Assembly: GCA_016188895.1 (NCBI GenBank)
Contig: JACPGZ010000041.1
Coordinates: forward strand, 1 to 42,400
DNA: 42,400 nucleotides
From: Candidatus Pacearchaeota archaeon
Lineage (GTDB): Archaea; Nanobdellota; Nanobdellia; Pacearchaeales; GW2011-AR1
Reading direction: 5' to 3'
In this document: positions 1,493-37,302 of the stretch, one piece after another
Numbering within the stretch: position 1 is the first letter of the stretch
Layout of the letters: every line of letters starts with the position of its first letter
Program-made: the position numbers and the translations under genes
Notes under the pieces: generated by a model
Seen by the model: only the letters and a program-made list of their open reading frames with translations
Databases searched by the model: none
What the model was told of the DNA's origin: nothing

Positions 1493-1496
1493 GAAA

Positions 1497-1844
1497 TTGG
1501 CAACTGAAAAAAAATTGGATGAGACAGCTTTCGGGGCTATTGTTAAAGAAATAACAGCATTCGGCGAGATGATAAGGACACATCAGGATGAGAAGCAAGC
1601 TGCAATGGATGAATTCGACAAAGAAAGAGAAAGATATCATGTTGGTAAAATATCTAAGAAAGCACTGGTGTCTTCTGTCAGAAAGGTTAATAGGGAACTT
1701 AAGAGATTAGATAATCTAATAAGAAAAGACATATCAAATCTTGTTAAGACTAATAATCAAGCTAAAGGATTTGCTCTTAAACAAGCTCCAAGGTCATTCA
1801 AAGTAGCAATGTCAGGCATAAGTTCATCATCAAGAAAGAAATAA
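1497..1844 (+). CDS. Hypothetical coiled-coil protein
   Basis: 115-aa ORF with a strong SD before a TTG start; helical, charged composition. Confidence 0.7.
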   Translation: MATEKKLDETAFGAIVKEITAFGEMIRTHQDEKQAAMDEFDKERERYHVGKISKKALVSSVRKVNRELKRLDNLIRKDISNLVKTNNQAKGFALKQAPRSFKVAMSGISSSSRKK

Positions 1845-2037
1845 TTTATTTTTATTTTTTATAATTTTTGTATACTTTCGTTTGTGTTGTTGAGATATTT
1901 AGACAAAAGAGATTGGGCATAGAGGTTCTAAGATTCTATTAAGAGCTATAACTAGGCATAAACCAAAGGGAGAAAAGAAAGAAGCAAAGATTGAAGCGTA
2001 GATATTATTTATAAACTAATTATTCCAAATTCATTAG

Positions 2038-6823: not shown

Positions 6824-7080
6824 TGGAGAGGGTAATCATGTTCACAGAGGAAGGGAAGAAGACACTCCAGAGTATGCATATTGATAATAAGCGAAAGATC
6901 AAGAGGGCATTGAAGGAGTTGGCCAAAGACTCGAGAATCGGGAAGGCTTTGACAGGAAGATTGCAGGGCTTCTATAGCTTCCGCGTTGGAAAGTATAGAG
7001 CGATATACTCAACTGAAGGAGAGGCTATTATCGTTCACGTGGTGGGACATCGGCGCGAGGTTTATGGGGTTGCGGCTTGA
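6823..7080 (+). CDS. RelE/ParE-family toxin
   Basis: GKALTGRLQGFYSFRVGKYRAIY...VGHRREVY. Confidence 0.9.
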   Translation: MERVIMFTEEGKKTLQSMHIDNKRKIKRALKELAKDSRIGKALTGRLQGFYSFRVGKYRAIYSTEGEAIIVHVVGHRREVYGVAA

Positions 7081-7192
7081 AGGGGGTTGGGGTGATGCGG
7101 GGCGGCTCGGCAGAGGGATGGATCCCGCCCCGGTTCCCCCTTGACCAGAGTTATGAAAAAGAAGAAAATCTCTGAAGCTGAGAAAAATATCC

Positions 7193-7453
7193 ATGAAGGT
7201 GCGGCTTGAGCAGGGAGACCATGGTACATGGCTCCTCATAGCAGAGGACGGCCGCGATCTCCTGATTCAAACTGACTGGGACTACCCAGGACTCGCTTCC
7301 CATCTCGGCTGGGTTCCTTGCACTCAATGCGATCAAACAGATGGAACGATTGACTGCGCTCACCGCACGGTTTCTGAAATGATCTCAGAGGCGAGACGTT
7401 TCCTGGATGAAAAGGAGGGCGAAAGTTTCGAAGATCCTGGCTACTTTGATTGA
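7193..7453 (+). CDS. Hypothetical protein
   Basis: 86-aa ORF with CTQC and TDGTIDCAH; no family recognised. Confidence 0.55.
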   Translation: MKVRLEQGDHGTWLLIAEDGRDLLIQTDWDYPGLASHLGWVPCTQCDQTDGTIDCAHRTVSEMISEARRFLDEKEGESFEDPGYFD

Positions 7454-7517
7454 GGAAACATTGGATTGGGGTTGAGTGGAGGTTGCGAGGGTGATAGTTG
7501 TGGCGGAAAAACATTAA

Positions 7518-17467: not shown

Positions 17468-18631
17468 TTATACTTGCTGCATAACCTGCTCTATTCTCTT
17501 TTTAAGTTCACCAAGGTCTTTTCTTGTTTGGTCGAGATCAAAGCGCAGAGACTGATTATCCTCTCCTTGTCGTCGTAGTCTATCAACTAATAGGCGCTCG
17601 CGTTGCTTTGCCTGTTGGAGCTCCCCTTCTATCCTCTGCAGATTACTATCAAAGAGTTTTTTCTTTGGTTTTCTACGATCAATCGCTAGGTAGGATACGT
17701 ACGCGTCAATCTCCTTGGAGCTGGGTTTGTGTCCGAGTCGGAAGTTCACTTCGTCTGTTGTCCAGCCAGACCTGAGGAGATGGCAGGCCATGCCAGATCT
17801 GAGATCCTTCCAGCTCACTCGAGTGTTTGTGGGGACGCAGCTTGCTCCTGTCTTCCTCGCCACGCTGTGCATTAGCTTCAAGGCTTGTCTGTAGCCGAAG
17901 CGGAAAACACAATCGTTTTCATTCAGTCCTGGTAAAACGATGTCAGCGTACTTCGCTGTCTCTGGATAGAGGGTTGGTTCGCTTCGCGACTGCCTGCTGC
18001 GTTTCAGCTTCTCCCGAGGAAGGTTTACCAAGTATTCAACTTCCCTAGTGTCTTCATTGACTTGACGGGTGAAGTCCTTCTTGGTGAGCTGCAGAAGGGT
18101 GTTGATGTTCTCTCCGACATCCCAGGCAAGCCAGAAAAGGAGCAAATGGGATGGCTTTGAAAGAACAGATACCATCTTTAGGAAAGTTTCCTCGCTAACG
18201 AAACTCACTTCCTTCCGAGGATTACTGCTGAACTCAATCACTTCCCTAGCGAGCTCATCCTTACCAGCAAGTTTGAAGGGCTTGCTCTTGAAGACTTTGT
18301 TGTAATAACTGCTTCTATCAGCGAATCTTTCGCCCTTTTTATTTCTGATTCGTCCTTCCTCGAGGTCGTCATACACTTTCTTTATATCTTCTTTTGTCAA
18401 ATCTTTCCATGGCTTATTCTTGAACCAAGAATTTACATTGCGGAACCGTTGGACGTAGTAAATCAAAGTCTTGTAGCAAGGTTCATCCAAAGCCGGAAGT
18501 CCATTCTGCCTCTTGAGCTTGTGCTCTTCGAATTGGAAAAATTGCCGGAAGACATCTCGATTCTCTCTACAAATCATCTTATCACACAAAAGCTCGTTCT
18601 TGGCCTTTTCATATCGTTCTTTAAATCCCAT
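17468..18631 (-). CDS. Tyrosine recombinase/integrase
   Basis: KDLRSG, RLGH and the downstream Tyr (DAYVSY), plus a C-terminal coiled coil; next to tRNA-Asp; probable start MGFKERY at 18631. Confidence 0.88.
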   Translation of the reverse strand: MGFKERYEKAKNELLCDKMICRENRDVFRQFFQFEEHKLKRQNGLPALDEPCYKTLIYYVQRFRNVNSWFKNKPWKDLTKEDIKKVYDDLEEGRIRNKKGERFADRSSYYNKVFKSKPFKLAGKDELAREVIEFSSNPRKEVSFVSEETFLKMVSVLSKPSHLLLFWLAWDVGENINTLLQLTKKDFTRQVNEDTREVEYLVNLPREKLKRSRQSRSEPTLYPETAKYADIVLPGLNENDCVFRFGYRQALKLMHSVARKTGASCVPTNTRVSWKDLRSGMACHLLRSGWTTDEVNFRLGHKPSSKEIDAYVSYLAIDRRKPKKKLFDSNLQRIEGELQQAKQRERLLVDRLRRQGEDNQSLRFDLDQTRKDLGELKKRIEQVMQQV

Positions 18632-22908: not shown

Positions 22909-25356
22909 CTAAAATAATCTTTTCTGCTGCACTGATTCTTGAATCTCGCCATAAACCCCGTCGTAACCTGGCTTTACTTTTAGATTGCCAATTCTATTGT
23001 TGATTATAAGCTCTGCAAGTTCTTGCTTAAATCCTGCATTGATGATATCAATTTTTTCTATCTTTATAAGAACATTAAACTCGTTTCCAAATTTTTCTAT
23101 GAGCTGATTGTAAATCAGCCATGTTTTCTTGCTGCTTAATGAAGATTTTATATGGAACGCAATAAGCTCATGCAGTGGCAGGAGCTTGTAGAATTTCTTT
23201 CTTTTTGCAGGGAAATAGCCAGCAGGCATCTTTGCCAATTGCTCTATTCTGTTATCAACACCTATTGTAAGCTCTTTCCCGCAAACAGGGCATATTCCAT
23301 TAAGCTCTTTTGATTTTGCAGGCGAGCATGAGAAATTGCATGTGCGATGCCCGTCATAATGGTATTTTCCATATGCAGGGTCTGTTTCAATTGTTGCATG
23401 AAAGCTATTTTCTCTTATTTGCTTGATAATTGACTTATATGACAGCGCATCTATGTTTATATCAAAGATAGTTGCTTCTCTTCCAATGCGCCATGGCCAA
23501 AAAGAATGAAGGTCAGAGAAGCTTACAATGCTTGTATTTTCTTTTAATCTCCATATCATGGACGGGTCAGCACTCATTCCAGACTCAACAGCATAAATAT
23601 GCTTTCGCTGCTCTTGAAAGCACTCTGCCAATGAATCAAATCCGCTTTTTGAGCCAAACAAACCGAACCAAGGCGTCATACAGTTATGAACTGTTGCAGA
23701 AGGGGTTACAAAGGAATTATCTTCTTCAACTTCTAAATTATAAACTTCTCCTTCATAATCTAAAGTTTCTATACTTTTAATAGGAATATACACATAATTA
23801 TCATCTAGCCAACCATGTTTTCTATTTAATTTAGTATTGAATTTAATAAATTCCGCCTCTTTTAGTAAATTAAATTTATCTTCATAAAAAGACAACCTCT
23901 GCAAAAAATAAGCATCATAATTAACATTAATCTTTCTTCCATGTATAAATCTCTTATACTTAGTGCCATCTTCTTTAGGTAATTTATAAATAGATGGAAT
24001 AATACCTAACCTTAAACAAATTAATTTCATTTGCTGTGCCAGTATTTCAGAAACAGTAACTCCACTATCTCCTCTCCACCATCCTCTAAATATTTCAATT
24101 TGCTTCTCAAGAGGCAAGTAAATAAAATGATCTGAAAGTTTTTTAGAATGAGCTCGGAGCTGTGTATTGGGTTCATAAAAGAGTTTTTCAAATAAGTTTA
24201 CCAATATTTTAGAATAAAAATAAAGCTCGTAACCATTTCTTTCTCGCTTTTTTCCAAGTTCAACATTGAAACATGTTTTCATCAAATTAATTACTTCTGC
24301 AATATAGATATCCTCATGTTTTCCAAAAGAAAATTGAATGCAATTGGTTTTTTTAGTAATATAACCCTCAGCCAAATAATAACCAACAAGCCTACATAAA
24401 TTATTATCTACTTTTATTATATCAAATATGCCTTTATCCTGTCTTCCAGCCTTTGAATAAATTTTATCCGATTTAACAACAAAATCTTCCTTATTTAAGA
24501 TAGAGGAAATTTTAATTTCTTGAAGATCAGTTGTTTCTTTTTGTCTTGGATATAATAAAACATCATTCACCTCTAATTTCTCAGCAGGTATCCATTCTGA
24601 TTTATAGTCATTATAATGTTTTTTAGTGCATTTATGTTTCCCCTTTGATATACTATTTGGCTTGCATAAACCTCCAACAAATGAGCAATCTTTAACTGTC
24701 TTAATAGCAAAAAAGGGATGTTCTGAAGTTGTATTTATGCCCTCCCTAAAATAATAGGGTTGTATACTATAAATCTTACCTTTATATGGTCTAACAAAGG
24801 TCGCAGTAACCTTTTTATAATTACCCGTATGAGTTAAAACTTTCTCACCAATTTCAATATCTGAAATCTTCTTAGGAGAGGGGTTACACATAATTTTCTC
24901 ATTAGGCAATAAACAATGTGCTGGAATTATCTCAATTTCATCGCTGAGCTTTTTCAAATCCTCAACAAGCTGCGGAGATGTCATTCCGAAAATCGGCCTG
25001 CCGTCATAATCCAGTCTTCCCTTGCTTCCAAGGTACTTAGTAATTTCATTTGAAACATTTGTATTTGGAGAGAATATAAGATGATGCACAGCGCGTCTCT
25101 TTCCGTCTTGTGAATACATCAATGATACTTCTGTCTGCCACAAAAACGGAAATCCAGAGCTTGTTCTTAAAATGCCGTTATCATCCTCTTTCAGTTTTTC
25201 ATCAATCTCCTTTCTCCACAAAGGATGCTGAAAATCGCCTGTTCCAATAATATGAAGCCCTTTTATTCTGGAATATTTTTCAAGAGCATCTATAGTAATA
25301 GCAGGACTGCATGCTCTTGCATATCTTGAATGAATCTGTAAATCAGCAATAATCAT
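22909..25356 (-). CDS. Endonuclease Q-family PHP-domain protein containing an intein
   Basis: DLQIHSRYARACS, GTGDF.HP, DGRP, IPAH..TPWFG.FGS.SG, SFSD.HS, GKYHYDGHR.C, CPVCG, PGYDGVYG. Confidence 0.9.
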   Translation of the reverse strand: MIIADLQIHSRYARACSPAITIDALEKYSRIKGLHIIGTGDFQHPLWRKEIDEKLKEDDNGILRTSSGFPFLWQTEVSLMYSQDGKRRAVHHLIFSPNTNVSNEITKYLGSKGRLDYDGRPIFGMTSPQLVEDLKKLSDEIEIIPAHCLLPNEKIMCNPSPKKISDIEIGEKVLTHTGNYKKVTATFVRPYKGKIYSIQPYYFREGINTTSEHPFFAIKTVKDCSFVGGLCKPNSISKGKHKCTKKHYNDYKSEWIPAEKLEVNDVLLYPRQKETTDLQEIKISSILNKEDFVVKSDKIYSKAGRQDKGIFDIIKVDNNLCRLVGYYLAEGYITKKTNCIQFSFGKHEDIYIAEVINLMKTCFNVELGKKRERNGYELYFYSKILVNLFEKLFYEPNTQLRAHSKKLSDHFIYLPLEKQIEIFRGWWRGDSGVTVSEILAQQMKLICLRLGIIPSIYKLPKEDGTKYKRFIHGRKINVNYDAYFLQRLSFYEDKFNLLKEAEFIKFNTKLNRKHGWLDDNYVYIPIKSIETLDYEGEVYNLEVEEDNSFVTPSATVHNCMTPWFGLFGSKSGFDSLAECFQEQRKHIYAVESGMSADPSMIWRLKENTSIVSFSDLHSFWPWRIGREATIFDINIDALSYKSIIKQIRENSFHATIETDPAYGKYHYDGHRTCNFSCSPAKSKELNGICPVCGKELTIGVDNRIEQLAKMPAGYFPAKRKKFYKLLPLHELIAFHIKSSLSSKKTWLIYNQLIEKFGNEFNVLIKIEKIDIINAGFKQELAELIINNRIGNLKVKPGYDGVYGEIQESVQQKRLF
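23683..24915 (-). mobile_element. Intein (411 aa) with LAGLIDADG homing endonuclease
   Basis: Begins CLLPNEKI; block B TSEHPF; LVGYYLAEG and FRGWWRGDS; VYNLEV...VHN followed by Cys+1; more AT-rich than the exteins. Confidence 0.93.
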
Positions 25357-26233: not shown

Positions 26234-27114
26234 TAACACAAAATAACTTCATCTTTGCTGATATAAAGAGTTCTCTCTGCCTGGCTTACAATTCCTCCTC
26301 CATCTTCAACAAGCTGCGGATAATGCTTTATTATTCCATTCTGCTCAAGGATACGCAAGGAAAATAAAGCTCTTGAAGAAAATTCCTTAACAATCCATCG
26401 CGAGCAGAAAGGAAGTGTCTTGTAATTATGCTCAATAAATTGAATAATCTTTCTTGCAAGTTCGTCTCTAACAGGCTTTTTTTTAATCAAAGCATATATC
26501 CCGCTTTCTCCGCCTTCATGAACACTCCCATTTCCATTTGTTGCAAACGGTTCAATTGCATAATACCCTTCCCCCAAAACATTATCATTTTTGTTGTCAT
26601 AATTTGGAACAGTTTTTCCAGCATGAATGATGTAGGGGGCAATTCCATGACCCGACAGATTTCTTATAGGAGCAAATCCATGCTTCATAATGCTTTTTTG
26701 GATTATTTCGCCAGCTTGTGAAAAACTCATCTTGCTGTTAATCTCGTTCAAGACATTTTTCAAAGCCTCTTCAGCCGCATGAATAAGTCTATTGTTATTT
26801 TCATTATGCTCAAGATTCAAGGAAAACGCATTGTCAGAGATATAACCATCAATGTGAACTCCGAAATCAATCTTCAACAATCCTTTTGCAGTTGATTTAT
26901 CATCAATGCTTGGAGTGTAGTGTGCAGCTACATGATTTATAGATGTATTTACTGGAAACGCAGGCTTTCCTCCAAGCTCTTCTATCTTTTTTTCAATCTT
27001 CTCAGCAATCTCAAGCAAGAGCATATCTTTTTTGATAAAACCTTTTGCATATGGAATAATCATTTGAGCTATCTCGCCGGCTTTCTTCAGCTTTTCAATT
27101 TCCTCACTATTCAT
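26233..27114 (-). CDS. map: Methionine aminopeptidase type II
   Basis: AFPVN, AAHYTP, DFGVHIDGYISD, NLSGH, AIEPF, SQAE. Confidence 0.96.
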   Translation of the reverse strand: MNSEEIEKLKKAGEIAQMIIPYAKGFIKKDMLLLEIAEKIEKKIEELGGKPAFPVNTSINHVAAHYTPSIDDKSTAKGLLKIDFGVHIDGYISDNAFSLNLEHNENNNRLIHAAEEALKNVLNEINSKMSFSQAGEIIQKSIMKHGFAPIRNLSGHGIAPYIIHAGKTVPNYDNKNDNVLGEGYYAIEPFATNGNGSVHEGGESGIYALIKKKPVRDELARKIIQFIEHNYKTLPFCSRWIVKEFSSRALFSLRILEQNGIIKHYPQLVEDGGGIVSQAERTLYISKDEVILC

Positions 27115-27168
27115 AAAAATTGGTTTATCTTATGATTTATATAACTTATGTCAGAAATCGGAGATTTC

Positions 27169-27375
27169 TTAATTCTTAAATCCTGTTCTGGCGCCGCATT
27201 CAGGGCAGAATTTTTCATCGCCTGTAAGGTTGATTCTGCACTGGGGGCAAATTGTCGGGTCTTTTCTTTTTTCAATCACAGCCTTGTAGCCAGCTCTTCC
27301 ACTGACAATCTTGCCAAATGCAGATGCGACTGCTTCAGAATCCATGTATTTCCTTAAGTCACGATTGCTTGTCAT
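27169..27375 (-). CDS. Small zinc-ribbon protein
   Basis: CPQC...EKFCPECG; probable start 27375. Confidence 0.7.
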   Translation of the reverse strand: MTSNRDLRKYMDSEAVASAFGKIVSGRAGYKAVIEKRKDPTICPQCRINLTGDEKFCPECGARTGFKN

Positions 27376-27392
27376 TTTTATTCCAATGCCCA

Positions 27393-27476
27393 TTCTCTAT
27401 GCCCCGCGATGCCCTACGCAGTGGGCTAGTTCTATGCAACTGCGATGCCCTATGCAATGGGCTGGAATGGGCTTTT
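27393..27476 (+). repeat. Dispersed hairpin repeat, composite cluster
   Basis: GCGATGCCCTACGCAGTGGGCT (27406), GCGATGCCCTATGCAATGGGCT (27442) and partial GGAATGGGCT (27464). Confidence 0.85.
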
Positions 27477-27515
27477 TATCCTCTAATAAAAATATATTTT
27501 TAAAGGTTTTGATTT

Positions 27516-27842
27516 TTAATCCTGATAAATCAATCTTCTATATGCCCATGCCACTAGAATAAAAACCAATCCAACAATAACATAAATCAGTCCACTTGTT
27601 AGATTAGGGAGCAATGAATCAAGAAATACAGCAATGCCAAATGCAATCAGAATATAGCCAGCAACCATAATATTTACAGAGTTCATGTAGCGCTTCCATT
27701 TCTCTCTGAATCTTATAAAGTTCTTTGAATCCTTTAGCGAGTCTTCTATGCCCTCTTCAACAGAAAAGATAAGAGAAGAGAAAAAATCATGAAGATATTT
27801 ACTAAAAATATTCTTTTCTCTAAAATTCTTTTTCTTAGCCAT
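27516..27842 (-). CDS. Small membrane protein
   Basis: Two C-terminal TM helices. Confidence 0.65.
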   Translation of the reverse strand: MAKKKNFREKNIFSKYLHDFFSSLIFSVEEGIEDSLKDSKNFIRFREKWKRYMNSVNIMVAGYILIAFGIAVFLDSLLPNLTSGLIYVIVGLVFILVAWAYRRLIYQD

Positions 27843-27853
27843 AATCAAACAGT

Positions 27854-28021
27854 TTACTTGAGCTTTTTTCTCGCGCGCTTAATAGCTTTTTTTAAAGTAG
27901 ATTCAGCCAGTCTTTTTTGCTTTGCCACATATTCCTTAACTAAAGGATCTCTCATTGCCATCTTAACCAGCTTCTTGCTATTTTTTAGCAATCTCTTTGC
28001 TCTTTTTCTCTTTTTTGCCAT
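27854..28021 (-). CDS. 55-aa highly basic protein
   Basis: MAKKRKRAKRLLKNSKKLVKMAMRDPLVKEYVAKQKRLAESTLKKAIKRARKKLK*; TTTAAATA box upstream; not in the ORF track. Confidence 0.6.
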   Translation of the reverse strand: MAKKRKRAKRLLKNSKKLVKMAMRDPLVKEYVAKQKRLAESTLKKAIKRARKKLK

Positions 28022-28104
28022 AGCAGATTAAATAAAATTTGATATTTAAATCTTTGTTTTAGATTGATAAAATCTTTAAGTATAAGAAATTGTATTGAAA
28101 TAAG

Positions 28105-28606
28105 ATGGAAGCGAAAAAGAGTTATTTTGATGGAAGAACAATGCATATTGATGTTAGTAGAAGATTTTATCAAAGAGGAGATAGTGGAATAGCATTTAAA
28201 ATCATTCCAACTAATGAACATAAAGGAATAGTTCTTTCAAATAAGTTAAAGAGGGGATTAAAAAGAGGCCTTAATATCGAGAAAGATTACGCACTACTCT
28301 CTGCTATTTGATAATTTAGTAATTTGTAATGATGAGCTTTACAGAGATACTAAAAAATATTTGGATTTACTTTTTGAAGGAAATAAAAAATATTCTTCTA
28401 AATTTATTACCTCCTTAAGTAAATTAAGAGAAGTTTCAGGAGATTCTAAAATTCGTTCGTATGCAGATAATATTGCAAATATTTACAGAAGAAAAGCATT
28501 AAAGCCATTAAGAAGAAAGCAGAAGGGAATAGTATTAAACCCAGTTGATATAAATTACCAAAAAATAAAGGAAAAATTAGAAGAAATTAAAAGGAAGGTA
28601 AAGTAA
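28105..28606 (+). pseudogene. Frameshifted gene with an RNase H-like acidic pattern (ORFs 28105-28311 and 28361-28606 are probably one gene)
   Basis: MHIDVS...SGIAF in the first frame; the second frame is open from 28262 and reads FDNLVICNDE...SYADNIANIY. Confidence 0.55.
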
Positions 28607-28694
28607 GTGGGTGGTGAATTTTCCTAACCAATTACACGCATTAGCGCTGGACACCTTACATATATAAGGCTTTTACAGGGTTCAGTCCACTTAC
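28602..28694 (-). ncRNA. Candidate structured small RNA convergent on the RNase H-like gene
   Basis: Closing stem GTAAGTGG/CCACTTAC; inner helices TGAA/TTCA, CCTG/TAGG, GCCTTAT/GTAAGGT, CCAG/TTGG and CGC/GCG; BRE-TATA CGAAAGTTTTATATA on the minus strand at 28716-28730. Confidence 0.55.
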
Positions 28695-28799
28695 AAAATA
28701 CATAAAACATAGAAGTATATAAAACTTTCGCAATTTGGAATTTTTGGACATTTTCAGATTTGATAAAATCTTTAAATATGTGTTTCTTGATTGAATGGG

Positions 28800-31478
28800 A
28801 TGATAACGAAAGAAGAAGCGAAAGATAAGTTAAAAAGACTAATATCAGATTTCCCTAAACATACATATCATAATGAAGAAAATTTGAAGTTTAACTATAT
28901 AGAACCCTTGCTTATGGAAATTTTAGGCTGGGATAGAGAAAATATAATTAAAGAACAGAGAGTTTTGAAGGGGAGAGCAGATTATATATTGAAGATTGGC
29001 AACGAAGAAGTTTTGGTTATTGAAACTAAACGCCCAAATGTCTCGCTAAATGAAGAAGAAGGTAGGCAGGCTGTTTCCTATGCTTATCACAGAAAGATTA
29101 AGTTTGCTGTTCTAACTAATTTTAAAGAAATTAAAGTTTATCATGCCTTAAGCAATATTAAAAATATCGATAAGAATTTATTAAAATTTGAAACAGGCGG
29201 ATTATTTAGAATTCCGATTGACCAATTCTTAACAAATTTTGATAAACTTTTTCTTTTATCTAGAGAAAGTTTTGAGAAAGGAGAAATAAATAAACTTTTA
29301 TCAAAGAAAGATGAAAAATTAGCTAAGCCAATTGATAAAAGTATCTTAGACGATTTACTTGAGATTAGAGAATGGCTATCGAAAGATCTTAAGAAATTAA
29401 GATTGCATCTTACGAAAGAACAGATTGATGAAATTGTACAGATTCTTATTGACCGATTCATATTTATGCGTTCGGTAGAAGATCGAGGCTTAGAGGAAAG
29501 AGATTTCTTATTAAAAATGGTTAAAGACTTTCAAGAAGGCAGAACTAATAAAAGGTTATGGGAATCTCTCAAAATAAAATTCAAGATTTTTGATAAGGAA
29601 TATAACTCTAATCTCTTTAGTGAAGGATTACTCGAAAAAGAAGGCTTTTTTGATGAGCAAATCTTGAGTAAGGTGATCAAAGAACTTTATTTTGGGAATG
29701 AAGGGCAACAAGAACGTTATATGTTTGATGAAATTCCAGGAGATTTGTTGGGAAGTATTTATGAACAATATTTAGGAACTGTTTTACAAGGAACAGAAAA
29801 GCGAGTAAAACTTGAATCAGAAAGTGGAAAAAGAAAGAAGATGGGAATTTATTACACACCATCTTATATTGTTGATTATATTGTAAAAAATACAGTAGGA
29901 GAATACATCAAAGATAAAACAATTGATGAAATTTTAGAAGTTAGAATTCTTGATCCTGCTTGCGGTTCTGGAAGTTTCTTAACAAAAGCATTTCAAGAAG
30001 TTGCCAAAGCAATAGAGGAAAGATTAAAGAAAGGGGAAAAGGCAAAAAATTATCAAGCATTTCAAAGTTATAATGGAAGATTAACATTAGGACAAAAAGC
30101 AACTATTTTATTGAATTGTATTCATGGTGTTGATTTAGATGAAAAGGCTGTTGAACTTGCACAATTAATTCTTTTATTAAAGCTTTTGGAAGATGAAACC
30201 CCAGAAACAAAAAGACGGCTTTTGCCAAATATGAAAGACAACATAAAAAATGGAAATTCTTTAATTGATGACCCAAAAATTGCAGGAAATAAGGCTTTCA
30301 ACTGGCATGCCCAATTCCCAGATGTTTTTAGACAAGGCGGATTTGATGTTGTTATTGGAAATCCGCCGTATGGTGCCAAATTAACAAATGAAGAAAAGAA
30401 ATATCTTGATAAAAATATAATAAAAGACAAATCTCAAGACACTGCTAATTATTTCATAACTAAAAATATTAAATTATTAAAAATAAATGGCAAGTTAGGA
30501 TTTATAGTACCAAAGGGGCTAAGTTATGTTCCCTCTTCACAGAATGTAAGGGAGGAAGTGATAAAGAATAAAATAAATTTCTTAATTGATGTTTCTGAAG
30601 CATTTGGAAAAGATGTACAATATGAGCAATTGATTATTATTATTTCAAAGGAGGATAGAGATTATAATAATTTTATAAATGGATTTTTTGCGAATGGTAA
30701 ATTTAATGAAAACCAATCTCCCAAAGAGATATTATCAAAAGAAAGACTCTTGATGTGGATAAATAATCACAATTTTAATATAATTAAGAAAATAATAAAT
30801 AATTCTATAAAATTAGATGAGATAGCTAAATCAAGAAGAGGGTTAGGTTGCAACAAATATGTCTCTACTGAAAAAAATGATTTTATCTGTCTTAAAGGGC
30901 AAAATGTTCAGAGATATCGTTTAGATAGAAGAAATTATATTTCTAAAAATAAGATAAATCAAGAATATAAATGGCTTCTAACTGATAAAATAATTGCCCA
31001 AGAAATAGTTGGAAGGTACGGTAAACCTTTGTTTGGAAATTTCAGAAATGTACAGCTTAAAGCAACTTTAGATTTAGATAATTCACTAACTTTAGACACC
31101 GTGGTAAATATCTTTAATATAGAAGGATATGATATAAAATTTGTGTTAGCTTTACTTAATTCAAGATTAATGTCTTGGTTTTTTCATATTTATTTTTACA
31201 ATAAAGCACAAATAACAGTGCATTTCGGCAACGAATATGTAAGAAACTTCCCAATTCCTAAAAAAATAGACAAAAAACAAGAACAAAAAGTAACTTCTTT
31301 GGTAGATGAAATGCTAAAATTGCAGAAACAACTTCACGAAGGAAATCCAACAGGAAATGAAAAAGAAAGGTTAGAACAGCAAATCAAAAATATTGATTAT
31401 GAAATTGACCAAGAAGTTTATAAGCTGTATGGGTTGACCAAAGAGGAGATTAAAATTGTTGAGGAGAGTTTGAAATGA
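28800..31478 (+). CDS. Type IIG (Eco57I-like) fused restriction endonuclease/N6-adenine methyltransferase
   Basis: N-terminal RADY...VIETK PD-(D/E)XK nuclease, GIYYTP, DPACGSGSF, GNPPY, TaqI-C-like TRD, terminal VYKLYGLTKEEIKIVE; probable ATG 28800. Confidence 0.93.
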   Translation: MITKEEAKDKLKRLISDFPKHTYHNEENLKFNYIEPLLMEILGWDRENIIKEQRVLKGRADYILKIGNEEVLVIETKRPNVSLNEEEGRQAVSYAYHRKIKFAVLTNFKEIKVYHALSNIKNIDKNLLKFETGGLFRIPIDQFLTNFDKLFLLSRESFEKGEINKLLSKKDEKLAKPIDKSILDDLLEIREWLSKDLKKLRLHLTKEQIDEIVQILIDRFIFMRSVEDRGLEERDFLLKMVKDFQEGRTNKRLWESLKIKFKIFDKEYNSNLFSEGLLEKEGFFDEQILSKVIKELYFGNEGQQERYMFDEIPGDLLGSIYEQYLGTVLQGTEKRVKLESESGKRKKMGIYYTPSYIVDYIVKNTVGEYIKDKTIDEILEVRILDPACGSGSFLTKAFQEVAKAIEERLKKGEKAKNYQAFQSYNGRLTLGQKATILLNCIHGVDLDEKAVELAQLILLLKLLEDETPETKRRLLPNMKDNIKNGNSLIDDPKIAGNKAFNWHAQFPDVFRQGGFDVVIGNPPYGAKLTNEEKKYLDKNIIKDKSQDTANYFITKNIKLLKINGKLGFIVPKGLSYVPSSQNVREEVIKNKINFLIDVSEAFGKDVQYEQLIIIISKEDRDYNNFINGFFANGKFNENQSPKEILSKERLLMWINNHNFNIIKKIINNSIKLDEIAKSRRGLGCNKYVSTEKNDFICLKGQNVQRYRLDRRNYISKNKINQEYKWLLTDKIIAQEIVGRYGKPLFGNFRNVQLKATLDLDNSLTLDTVVNIFNIEGYDIKFVLALLNSRLMSWFFHIYFYNKAQITVHFGNEYVRNFPIPKKIDKKQEQKVTSLVDEMLKLQKQLHEGNPTGNEKERLEQQIKNIDYEIDQEVYKLYGLTKEEIKIVEESLK

Positions 31479-32095
31479 ATAATCTATTTTCTGGAACACA
31501 AGAAAAAACATTTTATTTATGGATAGACCTTAATAACCCTATAGTTAAACACAATTTCAAAATTGGTTCTTTTGTTTCATCTAATTTTCTCCCTGCAAAG
31601 GGGGAAGACCATTTAATGTTTTTGCCAAATCCTAATTTCAGTAATTTTATAAGTCCTTTTCAAATGAATCTTCTTAATAGCTATCTTGCGGAATATAATT
31701 TAGAATTGAGTAGAAGAGCTTTCTATAAAAATTATCCAAATAGATTAGTCGCGACATTCTTATTTGATTATAAAGAGGAGGCGGACAAATATAAAGAAAG
31801 AAATCAAGAACTTGTAAAAAATAGAAAGTTGGTAAAAGGAAAATCTTTTGGAAATTGTATTTATTCGAAACATGATTTATCATGGATAGACTTTCTTAGA
31901 CTGAATGGTTCAAAAGATCAAGAAACCATTAATAATATTTGTAAATCTTATTGGGAAGGAAAAGTTGTCAAAGAATGCAAATTAATGCATTTTGGTAGCG
32001 AGTGGTCTGAAGACTCAATTTTTGAGATTCTTTTCTATGGAAAGATAAATTTTGACAAAGAAGAGCAGAAAATTATTGAGGAGAGCTTGAAATGA
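31475..32095 (+). CDS. DUF2441-like protein (cassette 1)
   Basis: EYNLELSRR.FY..YPNRL...FLF....A, D.SW.D, YWEG, FEILFYG; ends IIEESLK. Confidence 0.65.
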   Translation: MNNLFSGTQEKTFYLWIDLNNPIVKHNFKIGSFVSSNFLPAKGEDHLMFLPNPNFSNFISPFQMNLLNSYLAEYNLELSRRAFYKNYPNRLVATFLFDYKEEADKYKERNQELVKNRKLVKGKSFGNCIYSKHDLSWIDFLRLNGSKDQETINNICKSYWEGKVVKECKLMHFGSEWSEDSIFEILFYGKINFDKEEQKIIEESLK

Positions 32096-32505
32096 CAGAA
32101 GAAGAAACTGAAAATGAAGAAGAGAAAATAGTAAAGGCTTCTTGCAGCTTTTGTGGAAAAGAAATAGAATGTCCAGAAAAAATGCTAAAGGTTGATAAAC
32201 ACATGTGCTATGAATGTTATAAAAATCCTCCAGTAGAAATATCAGAAAAAGAATTGTCTAAAATCCATATAGATATTCCAATAAATAAACTAAATGAAAT
32301 GTTTTATGATGCAGTAGCTACTCAAATGAAAGAAATAGCCTTTCCTAAGATATGGCAAGAACGCAAATCAGAACTTAAAGAAATATCAAAAAAAGAATTA
32401 GCTGAGTTAATGTTCTTAGAGGGTGCGATGGCAGGGGCTGGGTTTTTATTCGAAACCATGAAAGATAAGGAAGAAAATGATATTGTCGAGGAGAGTTTAA
32501 AGTGA
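32092..32505 (+). CDS. Zinc-finger hypothetical protein (cassette 2)
   Basis: CSFC...HMCYEC; ends IVEESLK. Confidence 0.75.
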   Translation: MTEEETENEEEKIVKASCSFCGKEIECPEKMLKVDKHMCYECYKNPPVEISEKELSKIHIDIPINKLNEMFYDAVATQMKEIAFPKIWQERKSELKEISKKELAELMFLEGAMAGAGFLFETMKDKEENDIVEESLK

Positions 32506-32906
32506 ATGATTTAGAATTAATGGACGAAATGCAGAAAAATCACAGTTTCCAAGGGCAGATGAATGGTATGGCTAAGTCTATTGAAATAGTAATAGATAAA
32601 ATTTTAGAGCAAAACGACGTAAAACCACGAGGGTCATTTGGGAATAGAATTAAACAATTTAAGGAAGTCTGTCCAGAATTTCCTGAATTGCTTGGAGATT
32701 TAATGAACTTTAATGAGTTCTGGAACATTACGAAACATGGGGTAATAATTATGGGTGCGGACATATCGGAGTCTTTTTTTAAGGATGAGGAAACACACAA
32801 GTTTAATCAACAAAGGAAAGAAGAGATATCTAAGAACTTTACAGAAGTTATGAAAAAACTAATAGTGATTTCTAAAAAAAAAGTTATTGAAGAGAGTTTG
32901 AAATGA
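32502..32906 (+). CDS. HEPN-like helical protein (cassette 3)
   Basis: SFGNRIKQF...FNEFWNITKHG, a degenerate R-N-x3-H motif with Trp in place of Arg; GTG start; ends VIEESLK. Confidence 0.55.
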   Translation: MNDLELMDEMQKNHSFQGQMNGMAKSIEIVIDKILEQNDVKPRGSFGNRIKQFKEVCPEFPELLGDLMNFNEFWNITKHGVIIMGADISESFFKDEETHKFNQQRKEEISKNFTEVMKKLIVISKKKVIEESLK

Positions 32907-33473
32907 GTGAAACAATATTAGATTATGATAAAATAATATGGGAAGTTTTTGCCATCGGAGTTACTGCTTCTATTATAATCTTGTATAATGTCGTAAATTT
33001 AGAAAGTAAAATACCTAAGAACTTTGATGTTTTGGTACTGATTCTTGGTTTTTCTATACTAATCTATTCTTCCATTTTGTTTTTAGGTTATAATTTTAAA
33101 AAAAGTATTTTTATTAACTCAGATTCTAAAAATAAAATTAAGGAAAAGCTAGAAAAGAGTTGGTATCCTAGAGCAAGATGGATGGCAGAAATAATATTAC
33201 TTTTTATAATAATATTATATTTTAAAGCATTCACGGAAAAATGGATCCCAATAGTTATTCTATTGATTACCATAGTAATTTGTAGTATTGCTAATTGTTG
33301 TGCTAAGAAAAAAGTTCAAAAAAACAATTGGGTAGGTTATTGTAATTATTTTAAATCTTATTTTCGCTGTCAATAACTCTTTCTTCAAACACCCTCACCA
33401 TCTGAGGACTTGGCAAATCTATGTCGTGCTGGACAAAAATTGGGTAGATGTTATCGAGGAGAGTCTTAATTAA
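32903..33473 (+). pseudogene. Multi-pass membrane protein (cassette 4), probably frameshifted near 33335
   Basis: The ORF stops at 33376, but the +1 frame from 33336 reads VIVIILNLIFAVNN...NWVDVIEESLN*. Confidence 0.6.
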
Positions 33474-33521
33474 ATAATAGGCCATAGTTACATTATTAAA
33501 TATCAAAATATTAGGTAAAAT

Positions 33522-33719
33522 ATGGAAGGCAAAGAACAGGGGCTAAGAGAAAGGTTTCTAAAAATTTATGCAGATATTCCCTTAAATTTAAGAAAAGAGA
33601 TAATCCTTGTTTTAGAAAATGAACCGATTAGTTGGAATGTCGCTTTTGTTGAAGTGACAAATAAAACTCATAAATCAACAATAATATTAAAAAAATTAAA
33701 TGAATTAAGAATAATTTAA
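33522..33719 (+). CDS. Small hypothetical protein (module gene 1)
   Basis: 65 aa; 1 bp from the next gene. Confidence 0.75.
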   Translation: MEGKEQGLRERFLKIYADIPLNLRKEIILVLENEPISWNVAFVEVTNKTHKSTIILKKLNELRII

Positions 33720-33720
33720 A

Positions 33721-33939
33721 ATGGAAGAAAAAGAAAAAATTACAGAAGAAATAAAAAAACTTGTTATAGCGAGATTAGAAGTCCTTCCAGAAAATAAAAA
33801 AGTATCTATCGGAAATTTTGGTGAATTTAGTAAAAGTGAATTAATAGATAATGTAAATAAAAATACCGAAATTGGAAATAAAATTATAGAAATAGAACTA
33901 GAATTTTTAAGAGCTATGAAAAAAGGAATAATACAATGA
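33721..33939 (+). CDS. Small hypothetical protein (module gene 2)
   Basis: 72 aa; ATGA overlap with the protease-like gene. Confidence 0.75.
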   Translation: MEEKEKITEEIKKLVIARLEVLPENKKVSIGNFGEFSKSELIDNVNKNTEIGNKIIEIELEFLRAMKKGIIQ

Positions 33940-34577
33940 ATTTTAATTTTTTGCTCACGAGACCAGAACATGATGATACAACTTTTTATTTGTCCAACTG
34001 GTGTAAAGATGGTCTTGATTTAGCAGGAAAAAAGGGAGCAAAAATTAGCGACTTACATCGTGATAAGGCAAATAAAAAGGAGTTTGAAGGAAGAGTTTAT
34101 AAATCTTGTCCGGAATTTATTGTTTTCAATGGACATGGAGACGAAAATTCTGTTACAGGGCATAAGAATGAAGAGCTAATCTCGGTAGAAAGTGATGAAA
34201 AATTTTTAAAGTTAAATATAGTTTATGCAATTTCTTGTCGTTCTGCTAAAAATTTAGGTAAAAAATGTATTGAAAAAGGAACAAATTGTTATGTGGGCTA
34301 TACAGATGATTTTATTTTTGTTTACGAAAAAGAAAAAATAAGCAGACCATTAACTGACGAAACTGCTAAACTTTTTTTGGAACCATCAAAATTATTCATA
34401 GAAGCGGTAATCAAAAATAATTCCGTGAAAGATGCTCTAGAGCGCTCAAAGAAAAAAATTCAAGAAAACTTCATTAAAACTTTGTCTGGAGACGAACAAG
34501 AAACTACTCTGGCAAGGTATCTTTGGTGGAACTCAAGAAATTTTATATCTCTAGGAAATCAAAATGCTACAATATGA
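33936..34577 (+). CDS. Caspase/CHAT/gingipain-like (clan CD) cysteine peptidase domain protein
   Basis: FIVFNGHG ... IVYAISC His-Cys dyad, each residue following a hydrophobic beta-strand. Confidence 0.7.
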   Translation: MNFNFLLTRPEHDDTTFYLSNWCKDGLDLAGKKGAKISDLHRDKANKKEFEGRVYKSCPEFIVFNGHGDENSVTGHKNEELISVESDEKFLKLNIVYAISCRSAKNLGKKCIEKGTNCYVGYTDDFIFVYEKEKISRPLTDETAKLFLEPSKLFIEAVIKNNSVKDALERSKKKIQENFIKTLSGDEQETTLARYLWWNSRNFISLGNQNATI

Positions 34578-35212
34578 AAATGACCTACATTCTCTCCCCA
34601 TCTTCATTGAATCTTCTTGAGGAATGCCCGAGATGTTTTTATTTGCAAGTTGTCAGAAAAATAAGAAGGCCAAGAGGACCAATGTCTTCTATTCCGATAA
34701 AGATGGATTCTATTATTAAGAAGTACTTTGATATTTATAGGGAGAAAGGAATTTTACCGCCATTAATTGAAAAGAAGGTTAAAGGTGTTCTTCCTCTTGA
34801 TATGCCAAAAACATTATACTATGAAGATGAAAATAATGGAATAAAACTAAAAGGACTCCCAGACGAGTATTTACAAACTGAAGATGAAGCTATTGTCCCT
34901 TTTGACCATAAAACTAAAAGCAAAGCTCCAAAAGAAACGCATCCACGCTATCAGCTACAATTAGAATGCTATACTTTTCTTTTAGAAGCTAATGGATATA
35001 AAACTAAGAATTTTGGATATTTAGCTTATTATCATCCAGAGCAATGCGAGATACATAATGGAATGGATATTCAGGTGAATATTATCAAAGTCAAAACTGA
35101 CCCAGAAAGAGTTAAGAAAGCTCTCAAAAAGGCTTCTGAAATCTTAAATGGAAAACTGCCTAAAATTAACAGAACATGCGAATATTGCAAGTGGAAAGGA
35201 ATAAAATTATAA
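34574..35212 (+). CDS. PD-(D/E)XK nuclease, Cas4/AddB-like
   Basis: LSPSSL...CPRCF, GLPD...PFDHKT, QLECY, CEYC; ATG 34574 overlaps the upstream stop. Confidence 0.85.
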   Translation: MKMTYILSPSSLNLLEECPRCFYLQVVRKIRRPRGPMSSIPIKMDSIIKKYFDIYREKGILPPLIEKKVKGVLPLDMPKTLYYEDENNGIKLKGLPDEYLQTEDEAIVPFDHKTKSKAPKETHPRYQLQLECYTFLLEANGYKTKNFGYLAYYHPEQCEIHNGMDIQVNIIKVKTDPERVKKALKKASEILNGKLPKINRTCEYCKWKGIKL

Positions 35213-35254
35213 TTAATCCTCAGATAATTCTATAAACTCTTTTTTCTTTTAATA

Positions 35255-35572
35255 ATGATGCTCAAAGAAAAGAAATGCGTTCCATGCGAGGGTGGCATTC
35301 CTCCGCTTAGCACCAAAGAAGTCATCAACTTCATGCAAGAGCTCAAAGATTGGACACTTGATAATGGGCATCTCGTTAAGCATTTCAATTTCAAAGATTT
35401 TAAAGAAAATATGGATTTTGTGAACAAGATAGCTAAAATTTCAGAGGAAGAAGGGCATCATCCAGTATTATTCATTAATTACAATAAACTTAAAGTTGAA
35501 TTGTGGACGCACGCCATAAACGGGCTTAGCGAGAATGATTTTATTCTTGCTGCAAAGATAGATTCCCTTTAG
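35255..35572 (+). CDS. phhB: Pterin-4-alpha-carbinolamine dehydratase
   Basis: CVPCEGG, EEEGHHP, WTHAINGLSENDFILAAKID. Confidence 0.93.
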   Translation: MMLKEKKCVPCEGGIPPLSTKEVINFMQELKDWTLDNGHLVKHFNFKDFKENMDFVNKIAKISEEEGHHPVLFINYNKLKVELWTHAINGLSENDFILAAKIDSL

Positions 35573-36215
35573 CATCTCTCCTATCTTTAATTTTCAATTT
35601 CTGCCTTAAATATTCAAAAAGCGGAGGAACAAATGATGCAAGTATAATAACAAGAATAACTAATGCCAGATTATCCTGGACAAATGGAATATTACCAAAA
35701 AAATATCCGCCAAAAAGGAAGATGCCCACCCATGCAATTCCTCCAACAACATTAAAACTTACAAACCTGCTATAACTCATTTTTCCAATTCCTGCAACAA
35801 AAGGCGCAAATGTCCTTATAATTGGAATAAATCTAGCAAGAATAATTGTCTTGCCGCCATGTTTTTCATAAAACCTGTTTGTTCTATCAAGATACTTTTT
35901 TTTCACCCATTTGCTATTTGATATTTTGTCGCCAAAATAATTGCCTATCCAATAATTTAGAGTATCCCCAAGGATGGCAGCAATACTAATCAAAATAAAC
36001 AGAACATACACATTTAGCAGATTTTTTGCTGCAATAGTGCCTGCAACAAAAATAAGCGAATCGCCAGGAAGAAAAGGCGTTACAACAACCCCTGTTTCCA
36101 GAAATATAATTAAAAATAAGATAAAATATGTAGCAATCCCATAATCCTGAACAATAATATTCAGATATTTATCAACATGCAGTACAATATCAATAACTTT
36201 TCCAGTTATGCTCAT
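35541..36215 (-). CDS. dedA: DedA-family membrane protein
   Basis: ETGVVVTPFLPGDSL, GDTLNYWIG, ARFIPIIRTFAPFVAG; probable start 36215. Confidence 0.93.
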   Translation of the reverse strand: MSITGKVIDIVLHVDKYLNIIVQDYGIATYFILFLIIFLETGVVVTPFLPGDSLIFVAGTIAAKNLLNVYVLFILISIAAILGDTLNYWIGNYFGDKISNSKWVKKKYLDRTNRFYEKHGGKTIILARFIPIIRTFAPFVAGIGKMSYSRFVSFNVVGGIAWVGIFLFGGYFFGNIPFVQDNLALVILVIILASFVPPLFEYLRQKLKIKDRRDAKGNLSLQQE

Positions 36216-36285
36216 TTTTTTAGATGAAAAACTAAGTTTATAAATAATAAGATAAATTTTTATATTGCCGTTGTATCCATTTTCT

Positions 36286-37302
36286 ATGGATTCGGAAAAG
36301 AGACTTGAGTTTATTAAAAGAAACACAATTGAGATAATAAGCGAAAAAGAATTAAATGAATTGCTGAAAAGCAAAAAGAAACCTGTTGCTTACCTTGGAA
36401 CAGCAATAACAGGCAGACCCCATATTGGTTATTTTATATGGGCATCAAAGCTCGCTGATTTTATAAAAGCAGGATTAAAGGTCAAACTCTTGTTAGCTGA
36501 CATTCATGGGGCTTTAGACAATACACCATGGAATGTTCTAGAAAAGCGCTATAAATATTACGAAAAAGTAATTCCACTGATGTTTAAGTCACTGAGTGCA
36601 AACACAAAAGAATTGCAAATTGTCAAAGGTTCTTCTTTTCAATTGAAAAAAGAATATATTTTGGATTTGCTTAAGATGGCGACCTTTATTTCAGTACATG
36701 ATGCGACAAAATCTGCATCAGAGATAGTGAAACTTGGTGATAATCCAAAATTAGGCGGATTAATTTATCCATTAATGCAGGCACTTGATGAGCAGTATCT
36801 TTCAGCTGATATTCAGTATGGAGGAATTGACCAAAGAAAGATATTTGTTTTTGCTCGTGAGTCTTTACCAAAAATAGGATACAAACCAAGGATAGAGATT
36901 ATGACTCCATTGCTTCCTGGAATAACAGGAAAGAAGATGAGTGCTTCTGATCCTTCATCTGTTATTGATTTGCTTGATGACGAATCAGCAGTGAATCATA
37001 AGATAAGTAATGCATATTGCATGGCAGGAGATACTGAAAATGGATTAATTGCATTCTTAGAGTATGTTTTATTTACATTGAAAAAAGACAAAGGCGATAA
37101 ACTTGTGATTGAAAGAGATAAGCAATATGGAGGCAATATAAACTTCAATGATATAGAATCATTAAAGCAAGCATTTAAAGAAAAGAAGCTTCATCCTCTT
37201 GACCTCAAAAAAGCAGTTGCGCGCGAAATAAATATATTGCTAAAACCAATGAGAGAGAAAGGCAATGAGCTGAAAAAGCTGACAAGCCAAGCTTACTCCT
37301 GA
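36286..37302 (+). CDS. tyrS: Tyrosine--tRNA ligase (archaeal type)
   Basis: HIGY, YPLMQALD, GGIDQRK, KMSAS, LHPLDLK; probable start 36286. Confidence 0.96.
   Translation: MDSEKRLEFIKRNTIEIISEKELNELLKSKKKPVAYLGTAITGRPHIGYFIWASKLADFIKAGLKVKLLLADIHGALDNTPWNVLEKRYKYYEKVIPLMFKSLSANTKELQIVKGSSFQLKKEYILDLLKMATFISVHDATKSASEIVKLGDNPKLGGLIYPLMQALDEQYLSADIQYGGIDQRKIFVFARESLPKIGYKPRIEIMTPLLPGITGKKMSASDPSSVIDLLDDESAVNHKISNAYCMAGDTENGLIAFLEYVLFTLKKDKGDKLVIERDKQYGGNINFNDIESLKQAFKEKKLHPLDLKKAVAREINILLKPMREKGNELKKLTSQAYS

Follow-up and report, generated by a model that had tools for sequence, protein, structure and literature searches.

Tandem copies of the end of a Type IIG restriction-modification gene in a Pacearchaeota genome: probable scars of sequential displacement

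The DNA analysed here, referred to as the window, is a stretch of 42,400 nucleotides (nt) from a small groundwater archaeon, Candidatus Pacearchaeota archaeon (assembly GCA_016188895.1, contig JACPGZ010000041.1, positions 1 to 42,400 of the forward strand). It carries a gene for a Type IIG restriction-modification (R-M) enzyme followed by an array of other genes, hereafter called cargo, most of which end like the R-M gene itself, in codons for the peptide EESLK. The underlying 24-nt direct repeat occurs in five copies (31455-31478, 32072-32095, 32482-32505, 32883-32906 and 33450-33473) at spacings of 617, 410, 401 and 567 nt. Copy 1 consists of the last bases of the R-M gene, and the later copies stand at the end of, or behind, downstream genes. 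The copies, with the flanking similarity that belongs to them, are called tails below. The features of the array are as follows (aa, amino acids):

28791-31478, plus strand: Type IIG R-M gene, 895 aa, with an N-terminal PD-(D/E)XK-type nuclease, an N6-adenine methyltransferase and a TaqI_C-type recognition domain
31311-31478, plus strand: C-terminal block of conserved sequence, roughly the final 55 codons of the R-M gene, following the hypervariable recognition domain
31455-31478, plus strand: tail copy 1, IVEESLK, with a TGA overlapping the ATG of cargo 1
31475-32095, plus strand: cargo 1, 206 aa, with a non-native tail of 10-13 aa
32056-32095, plus strand: tail copy 2, 40 nt, KEEQKIIEESLK; in-frame end of cargo 1, giving the ATG of cargo 2
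32092-32505, plus strand: cargo 2, 137 aa, a CxxC...CxxC zinc-ribbon-like protein
32467-32507, plus strand: tail copy 3, 41 nt; IVEESLK and the GTG start of cargo 3
32502-32906, plus strand: cargo 3, 134 aa, of a family with a conserved FN..W.ITKHG motif
32880-32906, plus strand: tail copy 4, 27 nt; VIEESLK and the ATG of cargo 4
32903-33376, plus strand: cargo 4, 157 aa, predicted membrane protein (hydrophobic sequence) with its own stop codon and no tail
33450-33473, plus strand: tail copy 5, VIEESLN and TAA; remnant of the ancestral R-M tail, which still adjoins its native intergenic region

The five EESLK-type repeats, their spacings, the shared ends of the open reading frames (ORFs) and the stop/start overlaps, all reported in the preliminary description of this DNA, were found again in the sequence. 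The ORFs 28791-31478 and 32092-32505 end in IVEESLK, 31475-32095 in IIEESLK and 32502-32906 in VIEESLK, and at copies 1 to 4 the TGA stop overlaps the ATG or GTG of the following ORF. Copy 5, encoding VIEESLN before its TAA, lies only within a 45-aa frame and is part of no sizeable ORF. When up to three mismatches are allowed, the exact 24-mer gives four matches in the window versus none in 100 shuffles, and a degenerate version of the repeat core gives five versus a shuffle mean of 0.02. The whole assembly (969,809 bases in 62 contigs, 86.6% complete) holds only these five repeat matches, and a search for further EESLK-like C-termini returned the four of the array alone among 5,482 stop-to-stop frames of at least 50 aa.

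The tails are related but far from identical. Compared with the resident R-M end, copy 2 is 85% identical over 40 nt, copy 3 78% over 41 nt and copy 4 89% over 27 nt, which bears out the extended similarity noticed earlier at copies 2 and 3. Differences between copies are mostly synonymous or exchange isoleucine and valine, again as first described: over the 10 pairs, the proportion of non-synonymous differences (pN) is 0.115 and that of synonymous ones (pS) 0.655, a ratio of 0.18. The longest exact string common to any two copies measures 15 nt, and other pairs share 6-11 nt. Tail 2 differs from the R-M tail of a related locus, L026, by three mismatches in 42 nt versus eight from the resident tail, and is thus of foreign-allele origin. 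The R-M tail nearest to tail 4 is that of L059, with two mismatches in 27 nt, which beats the resident one by a single mismatch, and for tails 3 and 5 the comparison of alleles points to no clear nearest R-M tail. By their pS and pN, the tails are old and took their form within R-M genes; tail 5 and many remnants of the same kind at other loci nevertheless lie outside any gene.

The predicted R-M protein has the composition of a Type IIG (Eco57I-like) enzyme, i.e., a nuclease, a gamma-class N6-adenine methyltransferase with an NPPY motif and a C-terminal recognition domain. It matches Pfam families Eco57I (4.3e-33), N6_Mtase (4.9e-22), TaqI_C (7.4e-13) and HSDR_N_2 (8.9e-07) and the PADLOC model REase_MTase_IIG (2.3e-111), and a GNPPYG motif is visible in its translation. 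Alignment with 16 homologues reveals a mosaic, in which a hypervariable target-recognition domain separates a conserved body from a likewise conserved stretch of about the last 55 residues. Indeed, mean identity per 40-residue window is 0.36-0.87 over residues 1-520 (0.57-0.87 from residue 41), falls to 0.17-0.36 over residues 521-840, and rises again to 0.62 over residues 841-880 and 0.75 over the last 40. Conserved blocks flanking a variable domain are the layout expected for recognition-domain exchange by recombination, and allelic replacement of the recognition domain within Type IIG genes is among the events described in PMC2853133. A search of PDB sequences returned only remote matches to the bacteriophage exclusion (BREX) proteins PglX/BrxX over the methyltransferase motifs, and nothing on the structure of the tail.

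The tail is an add-on and not a native part of the cargo. Among 30 homologues found for cargo 1, 16 were aligned, and 13 of these stop at ...IDF(xK) or a few residues beyond, without a tail; within this aligned set only the window protein, P0002 and P0003 bear one. In the two closest homologues (identity 76% and 68%), E(E)[IQ]K[IV][IV]EESLK is added at the end. Of the seven members of the cargo 2 family, the four closest have EESL[KR] at their ends, a fifth has a different end and the two most distant (P0036 and P0037) are tailless. Cargo 3 has 44 distant homologues, and all 15 aligned ones end before VIEESLK. The preliminary description had proposed to look for cargo homologues free of the tail; these exist for most of cargo 1, for all aligned cargo 3 and for two distant cargo 2 proteins, but the closest relatives of cargo 1 and cargo 2 keep it.

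What the cargo encodes can be read tentatively and in part. A DUF2441 label for cargo 1 came from a precomputed column alone and was discarded, as neither a Pfam scan nor a search with the corresponding profile confirmed it: PF10386 is not among the Pfam matches of cargo 1 at E <=0.1, and a PF10386 search of 401 genomes did not recover cargo 1 even in its own genome. For cargo 3, comparison with an atlas gives weak HEPN/Abi_C leads (score 0.87-0.89, TM 0.56-0.60). Cargo 2 homologues lie directly downstream of intact R-M genes in G635:C18 (50% identity) and G242:C3 (42%), two contigs of the public sequencing run X5 join the R-M stop to cargo 2, and a cargo 4 homologue (30% identity) is the immediate R-M neighbour in L049. 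The positions of the cargo 2 relatives standing behind intact R-M genes are 32092-32505 in the window, 7050-7469 (minus strand) in L151 (G635:C18) and 1441-1860 (minus strand) in L130 (G242:C3). From its recurrence at this place, cargo 2 may be a functional partner of the R-M enzyme rather than a random cargo. No relative of cargo 1 or cargo 2 was found in the viral contigs searched.

The distal end of the array adjoins three further features:

33393-33448, minus strand: probable 3' fragment of a DUF2283-type gene, with 10 of 19 residues matching the C-terminus of a 138-aa protein of L022
33522-34577, plus strand: conserved three-gene module (65, 72 and 213 aa), directly behind the R-M gene in relatives
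34523-35212, plus strand: Cas4-like PD-(D/E)XK nuclease (Pfam PDDEXK_1 1.1e-14, Cas_Cas4 5.5e-07), at the island edge

Tail 5, the spacer behind it and the start of the 65-aa gene align with a 78-nt remnant and the downstream region of L065 (window 33473-34577). The module proteins are 80-83% identical in L065, where they measure 65, 72 and 215 aa, and 34-47% identical in L040/L057, L060 and L066. Empty sites also exist: in L040/L057 and L060 the first gene of the module begins 49-59 nt after the R-M stop. The synteny with L065 and the empty sites together identify tail 5 as the ancestral R-M end and 31478-33450 as inserted material. The fragment at 33393-33448 is probably what is left of a deleted antitoxin-like cassette, to judge from its similarity to the L022 protein (E 2e-4 in a single comparison); the L058 homologue matches DUF2283 at 8e-07, DUF2283-type proteins are cargo in L058, L107 and L022, and contigs of other organisms align to the fragment.

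The relatives were surveyed at several scales. Among 52 related R-M loci, from genomes whose public records name them Pacearchaeota, Woesearchaeota and Nanoarchaeota, 40 hold the 3' end of the R-M gene, and 34 have at least 800 nt downstream and reduce to 26 non-redundant loci, the window included. As the preliminary description had anticipated, the identity and number of the downstream genes vary: the neighbours directly behind the R-M genes are nearly all unrelated, with only three homologous pairs among the 26 loci. Where a single gene follows the R-M gene, it mostly ends without a tail. Extra tail copies occur downstream in four of the 26 loci, namely the window, L058 (copies of 37, 90 and 137 nt), L065 (30 and 78 nt) and L046 (two copies), and the genes between the tails give no tblastn cross-matches among these four. 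Tail copies behind an intact R-M gene are also carried by G178:C5 and G635:C18, which makes five such loci besides the window, with 1-3 copies each. In G178:C5 there are two remnants, both of a tail type differing from the resident R-M gene. In G635, a genome of another family, a cargo 2 homologue stands behind the R-M gene, and after it come two remnants of 32-38 aa, each overlapping the start of the next gene.

At the scale of the order, the last 63 residues of the R-M protein give 75 matches in 62 of 401 genomes. Seventeen of these matches, in 15 genomes, lie in open frames of less than 100 aa; one of them, in G116, reaches the end of its contig and is perhaps a truncated gene. A profile built from 31 R-M ends and used to map remnants in the fetched loci finds remnants of 23-66 aa in many of them, a longer 3' fragment of about 185 aa is present in G178:C33, and overall remnant length ranges from 24 to about 200 nt. 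The left ends of the remnants cluster near IKNVDYEID, which was rejected as evidence because this point coincides with the onset of detectable conservation. The tail followed by TGA, searched as a pattern, has 35 matches in 27 of 350 sampled genomes of the phylum versus two control matches, and clusters of it appear in only two genomes, that of the window (four matches) and G635, on C18 (three). Unit number also differs among close relatives, as shown by a contig of run X5, from another study, in which a cargo-like end (DFDKEEIKIV) runs straight into tail 5 and the 65-aa gene, with 95.6% identity; the public-run evidence at the locus consists of contigs with patchy cover.

The tails also carry what looks like a translation start. 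Each has GAGGAG or GAAGAG 8 nt before the ATG or GTG that overlaps the stop. In this genome, GGAGG stands upstream of 4.6% of long ORFs versus 0.84% in the background, and GAG makes up 58% of the glutamate codons in 50 unique R-M tails versus 33% genome-wide. The next ORF starts at an ATGA or GTGA overlap in 14 of the 26 R-M loci versus 56 of 482 long ORFs genome-wide (11.6%). Of the seven short internal tails, five continue the frame of the preceding gene; both tails of L046 differ, one lying 12 codons behind the stop and the other being read by the preceding gene in another frame. A search of the assembly for a 16S 3' end found none. A promoter scan was not above shuffles (43 versus 35.6 +/- 6.4) and gave no terminators, with a consensus that is bacterial, the host being archaeal, and an Rfam scan of 27000-36500 gave no match. 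As a separate observation, genomes of two families of the class (G440, G587 and G629) share the 24-mer ATTATTGAGGAGAGTTTGAAATGA without a difference. This identity and the over-use of GAG may be due to a constraint at the nucleotide level or to recent transfer.

No recombination machinery belonging to the array was recognised. The absence of an adjacent recombinase and the non-palindromic character of the repeat, both noted from the start, hold: no match to the integrase family PF00589 exceeds the cut-off in the window, above-cut-off matches being on contigs C37, C22, C7 and C12, and the sole window match (17714-17893) is below the cut-off in an ORF without an integrase domain in Pfam. Among the cargo ORFs read in the window, L058, L065, L046, L106 and L151, none looked like an integrase; only a subset of these ORFs was scanned against family libraries. 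No inverted repeat is present at the five copies, and the tails form no hairpin, 71-nt windows at the five copies having minimum free energies of 0 to -3 kcal/mol and z-scores of -0.33 to +1.94. The array consequently lacks the adjacent IntI-type tyrosine recombinase and the attC hairpin palindrome that define an integron. Nor does it look like a site-specific integrative element of a gene 3' end, as no integrase was recognised among the cargo ORFs read, there is no fixed core attachment site, and the remnants vary in length.

The reading that accounts best for these observations, and that is considered reasonably probable, is that the array consists of recombination scars left at the R-M 3' end by sequential displacement and now serving to start translation. 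This is one of the three models of the preliminary description, in which incoming R-M alleles replace one another serially, and it fits best with the synonymous divergence of the copies, the foreign tail 2, the variable remnants and the ancestral distal copy. The locus shows two hallmarks of a displacement array, i.e., a conserved anchor with a variable 3' part, followed downstream by 3' fragments from other alleles. A further mark of such arrays, an orphan partner found elsewhere next to a full-length main gene, is seen for the cargo 2 and cargo 4 families; that these families are first neighbours of intact R-M genes at other loci favours displacement.

Mechanistically, incoming DNA would repeatedly bring a new 3' part of the R-M gene together with the donor's next gene. 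Its left end would recombine in conserved R-M sequence, whereas its right end would join illegitimately, through a few bases of microhomology in lysine and glutamate codons, within the conserved end of the resident gene. The cargo 1 junction lies in lysine and glutamate codons common to the R-M tail, which fits such a microhomology join. Each event of this homology-facilitated illegitimate recombination would shift the previous tail and its neighbour gene downstream, so that the most distal tail would be the oldest, and later recombination or deletion between tails could remove or reshuffle units. Old tails would be kept since each carries the GAGGAG-type ribosome-binding site (RBS) and the ATGA/GTGA stop-start overlap of the next gene, whose start region would disappear with a deletion of the tail, and in-frame fusion of the preceding cargo to the tail would preserve termination-reinitiation coupling. 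The outcome would be an R-M-led operon accumulating accessory genes, with the EESLK peptide as a by-product.

Several observations weigh against this displacement reading. The precision of the ATGA/GTGA overlaps with unrelated genes is not explained by random illegitimate joins, and the five in-frame tails out of seven would need selection or microhomology in codon phase. Sequences resembling a Shine-Dalgarno motif are no more frequent in coupled tails (15 of 27) than in uncoupled ones (15 of 23). Cargo 1 is fused at an identical FDK|EE junction in the window, P0002 and the X5 contig, the tail of P0003 has two extra residues, and the four closest cargo 2 homologues keep their tail; these cases suggest that a gene and its downstream tail can also travel as a cassette-like unit. 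Tail type and neighbour are moreover unpaired: the tail of L026 is of the tail-2 type, its neighbour cargo-4-like. Simple degeneration of R-M genes contributes as well, with 5' R-M fragments in G407, G130 and G132 and an internally deleted R-M ORF in G167; the control for specificity to the 3' end (832-aa query) scored two candidates per genome and is less sensitive than the 63-aa tail query. Finally, recombination is deduced from metagenome assemblies, and no event was witnessed.

Two related alternatives involve gene capture. According to the first, which is unlikely, the conserved last ~25-165 nt of this R-M family are an evolved, recombinase-free socket for gene capture that unites a homology arm, an RBS and an ATGA overlap. 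If this were true, DPANN archaea with their small genomes could slot foreign defence genes behind an expressed R-M gene, where they would be translated at once, and units would be gained, lost and reshuffled at the tails, amounting to an integron-like function built from the coding end of a defence gene. According to the second, a doubtful one, the locus is a gene-capture platform in which a cassette of a gene and its tail inserts and excises by recombination between tails, the R-M tail being the docking site and coupling translation automatically. The agent would be host homologous recombination on short homology or a trans-acting recombinase or nuclease, e.g., the neighbouring Cas4-like protein. 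The platform would account for the excess of ATGA/GTGA overlaps with unrelated neighbours, for the cargo 1-tail junction shared by two homologues and the X5 contig and the tail on the four closest cargo 2 homologues, for the unit number varying between close relatives and for the Cas4-like nuclease recurring beside such islands. Against it stand the many single R-M neighbours without a tail of their own, the repeat length of 24 to ~200 nt, the lack of a hairpin and of an over-cut-off integrase in the window, and the short exact identity between copies, a poor substrate for homologous recombination. From the integron-like model of the preliminary description, what survives is thus a hot spot with variable, translationally coupled genes, without a nearby recombinase, a fixed repeat length or a hairpin.

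It is improbable that the tails arose in situ, the resident R-M junction being copied by duplication or gene conversion between pre-existing genes of an operon for better translational coupling. The RBS-like GAGGAG/GAAGAG with its overlapping start and the GAG bias of the tails would suit such an origin, but pS is near saturation, tail 2 is closer to a foreign allele, the genes between the tails are absent from the syntenic relatives with empty sites, and remnants elsewhere reach at least 137 nt and lie outside genes.

Another of the earlier models, a functional C-terminal tag selected on the cargo for docking to the R-M enzyme or for degradation, is very improbable. The low pN/pS ratio and the preponderance of in-frame tails are what a tag would produce; however, descent from R-M genes explains the purifying pattern without one. 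The L046 tails behind a stop or in another frame, the tailless cargo 4, the cargo families that exist without a tail, and the retention of the same codons in tail 5 and many remnants within frames of 24-68 aa that are no gene all argue against it.

It is hardly credible that the array is an artefact of strain variants collapsed or chained at the repeat during assembly, a risk raised in the preliminary description: all data are metagenomic and a contig of run X4 ends at 32926, near copy 4, but the exact identity shared by the copies is below assembler word sizes, which makes a collapse implausible, and comparable arrays occur in assemblies of other studies (L058, L065, L046, G178 and G635). All sampled 31-mers of 30800-34000 are present in four runs of one study, but as these runs are possibly the source of the assembly, their presence is no independent support.

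Beyond the array, the island is flanked by housekeeping genes. The module region occupies 33522-35212 in the window, 13754-14815 in L065, 12957-14009 in L040/L057, 2165-3250 in L060, 13752-14795 in L066 and 2919-4654 in L148 (G407:C5), with genes of ~62-65, 72-85 and 213-215 aa. In G407 it is kept though only 162 codons of the R-M 5' end survive, and the Cas4-like nuclease also adjoins it on G407:C5. The 213-aa protein has weak CHAT-like leads (score 0.88). The R-M-associated module may be a multi-gene defence island. Elsewhere in the window, an 815-aa ORF at 22909-25356 (minus strand) matches an intein splicing domain (4.1e-11) and, weakly, LAGLIDADG, by which the host gene at this place is predicted to be interrupted by an intein.

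Cargo of the related arrays includes a PADLOC defence candidate, PDC-S32 (1.7e-45, in L065), as well as DUF2283, radical SAM, NYN and YhcG/DUF1016 nuclease proteins and a DUF5678 gene paired with an aspartyl-protease-like gene. Such a mix is typical of defence islands, and the accessory genes are probably defence-related. The pair of DUF5678 (~80 aa) and aspartyl-protease-like (~144 aa) genes adjoins R-M tails or remnants in four loci: L106 (7835-8516), L108 (3994-4678, minus strand), L112 (5112-5360, DUF5678-like gene only) and L130 (745-1418, minus strand). The first gene behind a tail or remnant often has an Rx4H motif, read by eye as RNKYIH, RNKFAH or RHTIVH (L112 4492-5055; L111 5388-5939, minus strand; L058 12897-13466), which suggests that these genes encode HEPN-type RNases. 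At L120 (G167:C17, 3845-4450), a 201-aa ORF has lost the methyltransferase and recognition domains of an R-M homologue by deletion, and its N-terminal nuclease domain continues in frame into the final ~36 residues of the tail.

If the displacement reading is right, very small archaeal genomes can enlarge a defence island with neither transposases nor integrases, and the conserved end of a Type IIG gene is at once a recombination hot spot and a translation start available to incoming genes. The logic of sequential displacement known from polymorphic toxin loci would be extended to R-M systems and to DPANN archaea. An orphan R-M tail could then mark recently acquired, possibly defence-related accessory genes, one of which already matches PDC-S32. 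For annotation, a C-terminal peptide common to small proteins may be a scar and not a domain.

Searches of open-access literature yielded no description of R-M tail arrays of this kind, which is not proof of absence. The preliminary statement that no described system has this layout is nevertheless too strong, as sequential-displacement arrays and long target duplication are close precedents. The comparison with integrons, including archaeal ones, extends to tandem promoterless genes each with a repeat, a fixed platform and expression from upstream. Unlike in integrons, no IntI lies nearby, and the repeat is non-palindromic, unfolded, variable in length and part of the coding sequence of the platform gene. 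Tandem elements of the staphylococcal cassette chromosome (SCC) type, at the rlmH 3' end, are flanked by direct repeats copying the last bases of a methyltransferase gene. Some SCC cassettes have no recombinase of their own, but SCC elements extend over kilobases, and Ccr serine recombinases move them at a fixed core site; neither such an enzyme nor a fixed core was seen here.

Long target duplication, as presented in PMC2853133, produces inserts flanked by variable-length direct repeats of more than 30 bp, without transposase or integrase and with an empty site in a relative. The present loci offer the empty sites of L040/L057 and L060 and long repeats in L065 (78 nt) and L058 (90 and 137 nt), the window's own repeats being of 24-41 nt. 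In the cases that Furuta et al. present, R-M genes are inserted into an arbitrary target, whereas here the R-M 3' end is itself the duplicated target, the inserts are non-R-M genes and the events are stacked serially. Recognition-domain substitution likewise deals with a variable domain between conserved blocks, but a clean swap is scarless; here, the right junction was apparently not settled by homology, the tail was duplicated and a donor gene was carried along.

Comparable displacement arrays are formed by the orphan modules of Rhs proteins and of contact-dependent inhibition (CDI) systems. In the effector-immunity arrays of the type VI secretion system (T6SS) of Vibrio cholerae, as outlined in PMC5361080, incoming modules displace the old effector while its partner gene is kept. 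The same source includes cases in which the old 3' end was shifted downstream and proposes homology-facilitated illegitimate recombination (PMC5361080). These T6SS, Rhs and CDI arrays share with the EESLK array a conserved part with a replaceable variable 3' part, and the accumulation of heterogeneous orphans. They differ in that the main gene here encodes an R-M enzyme and not a toxin, what remains is the extreme 3' end (8-66 codons) instead of a toxin tip, unrelated accessory genes take the downstream place of cognate immunity genes, and the scars both extend the preceding gene in frame and provide the start of the next one.

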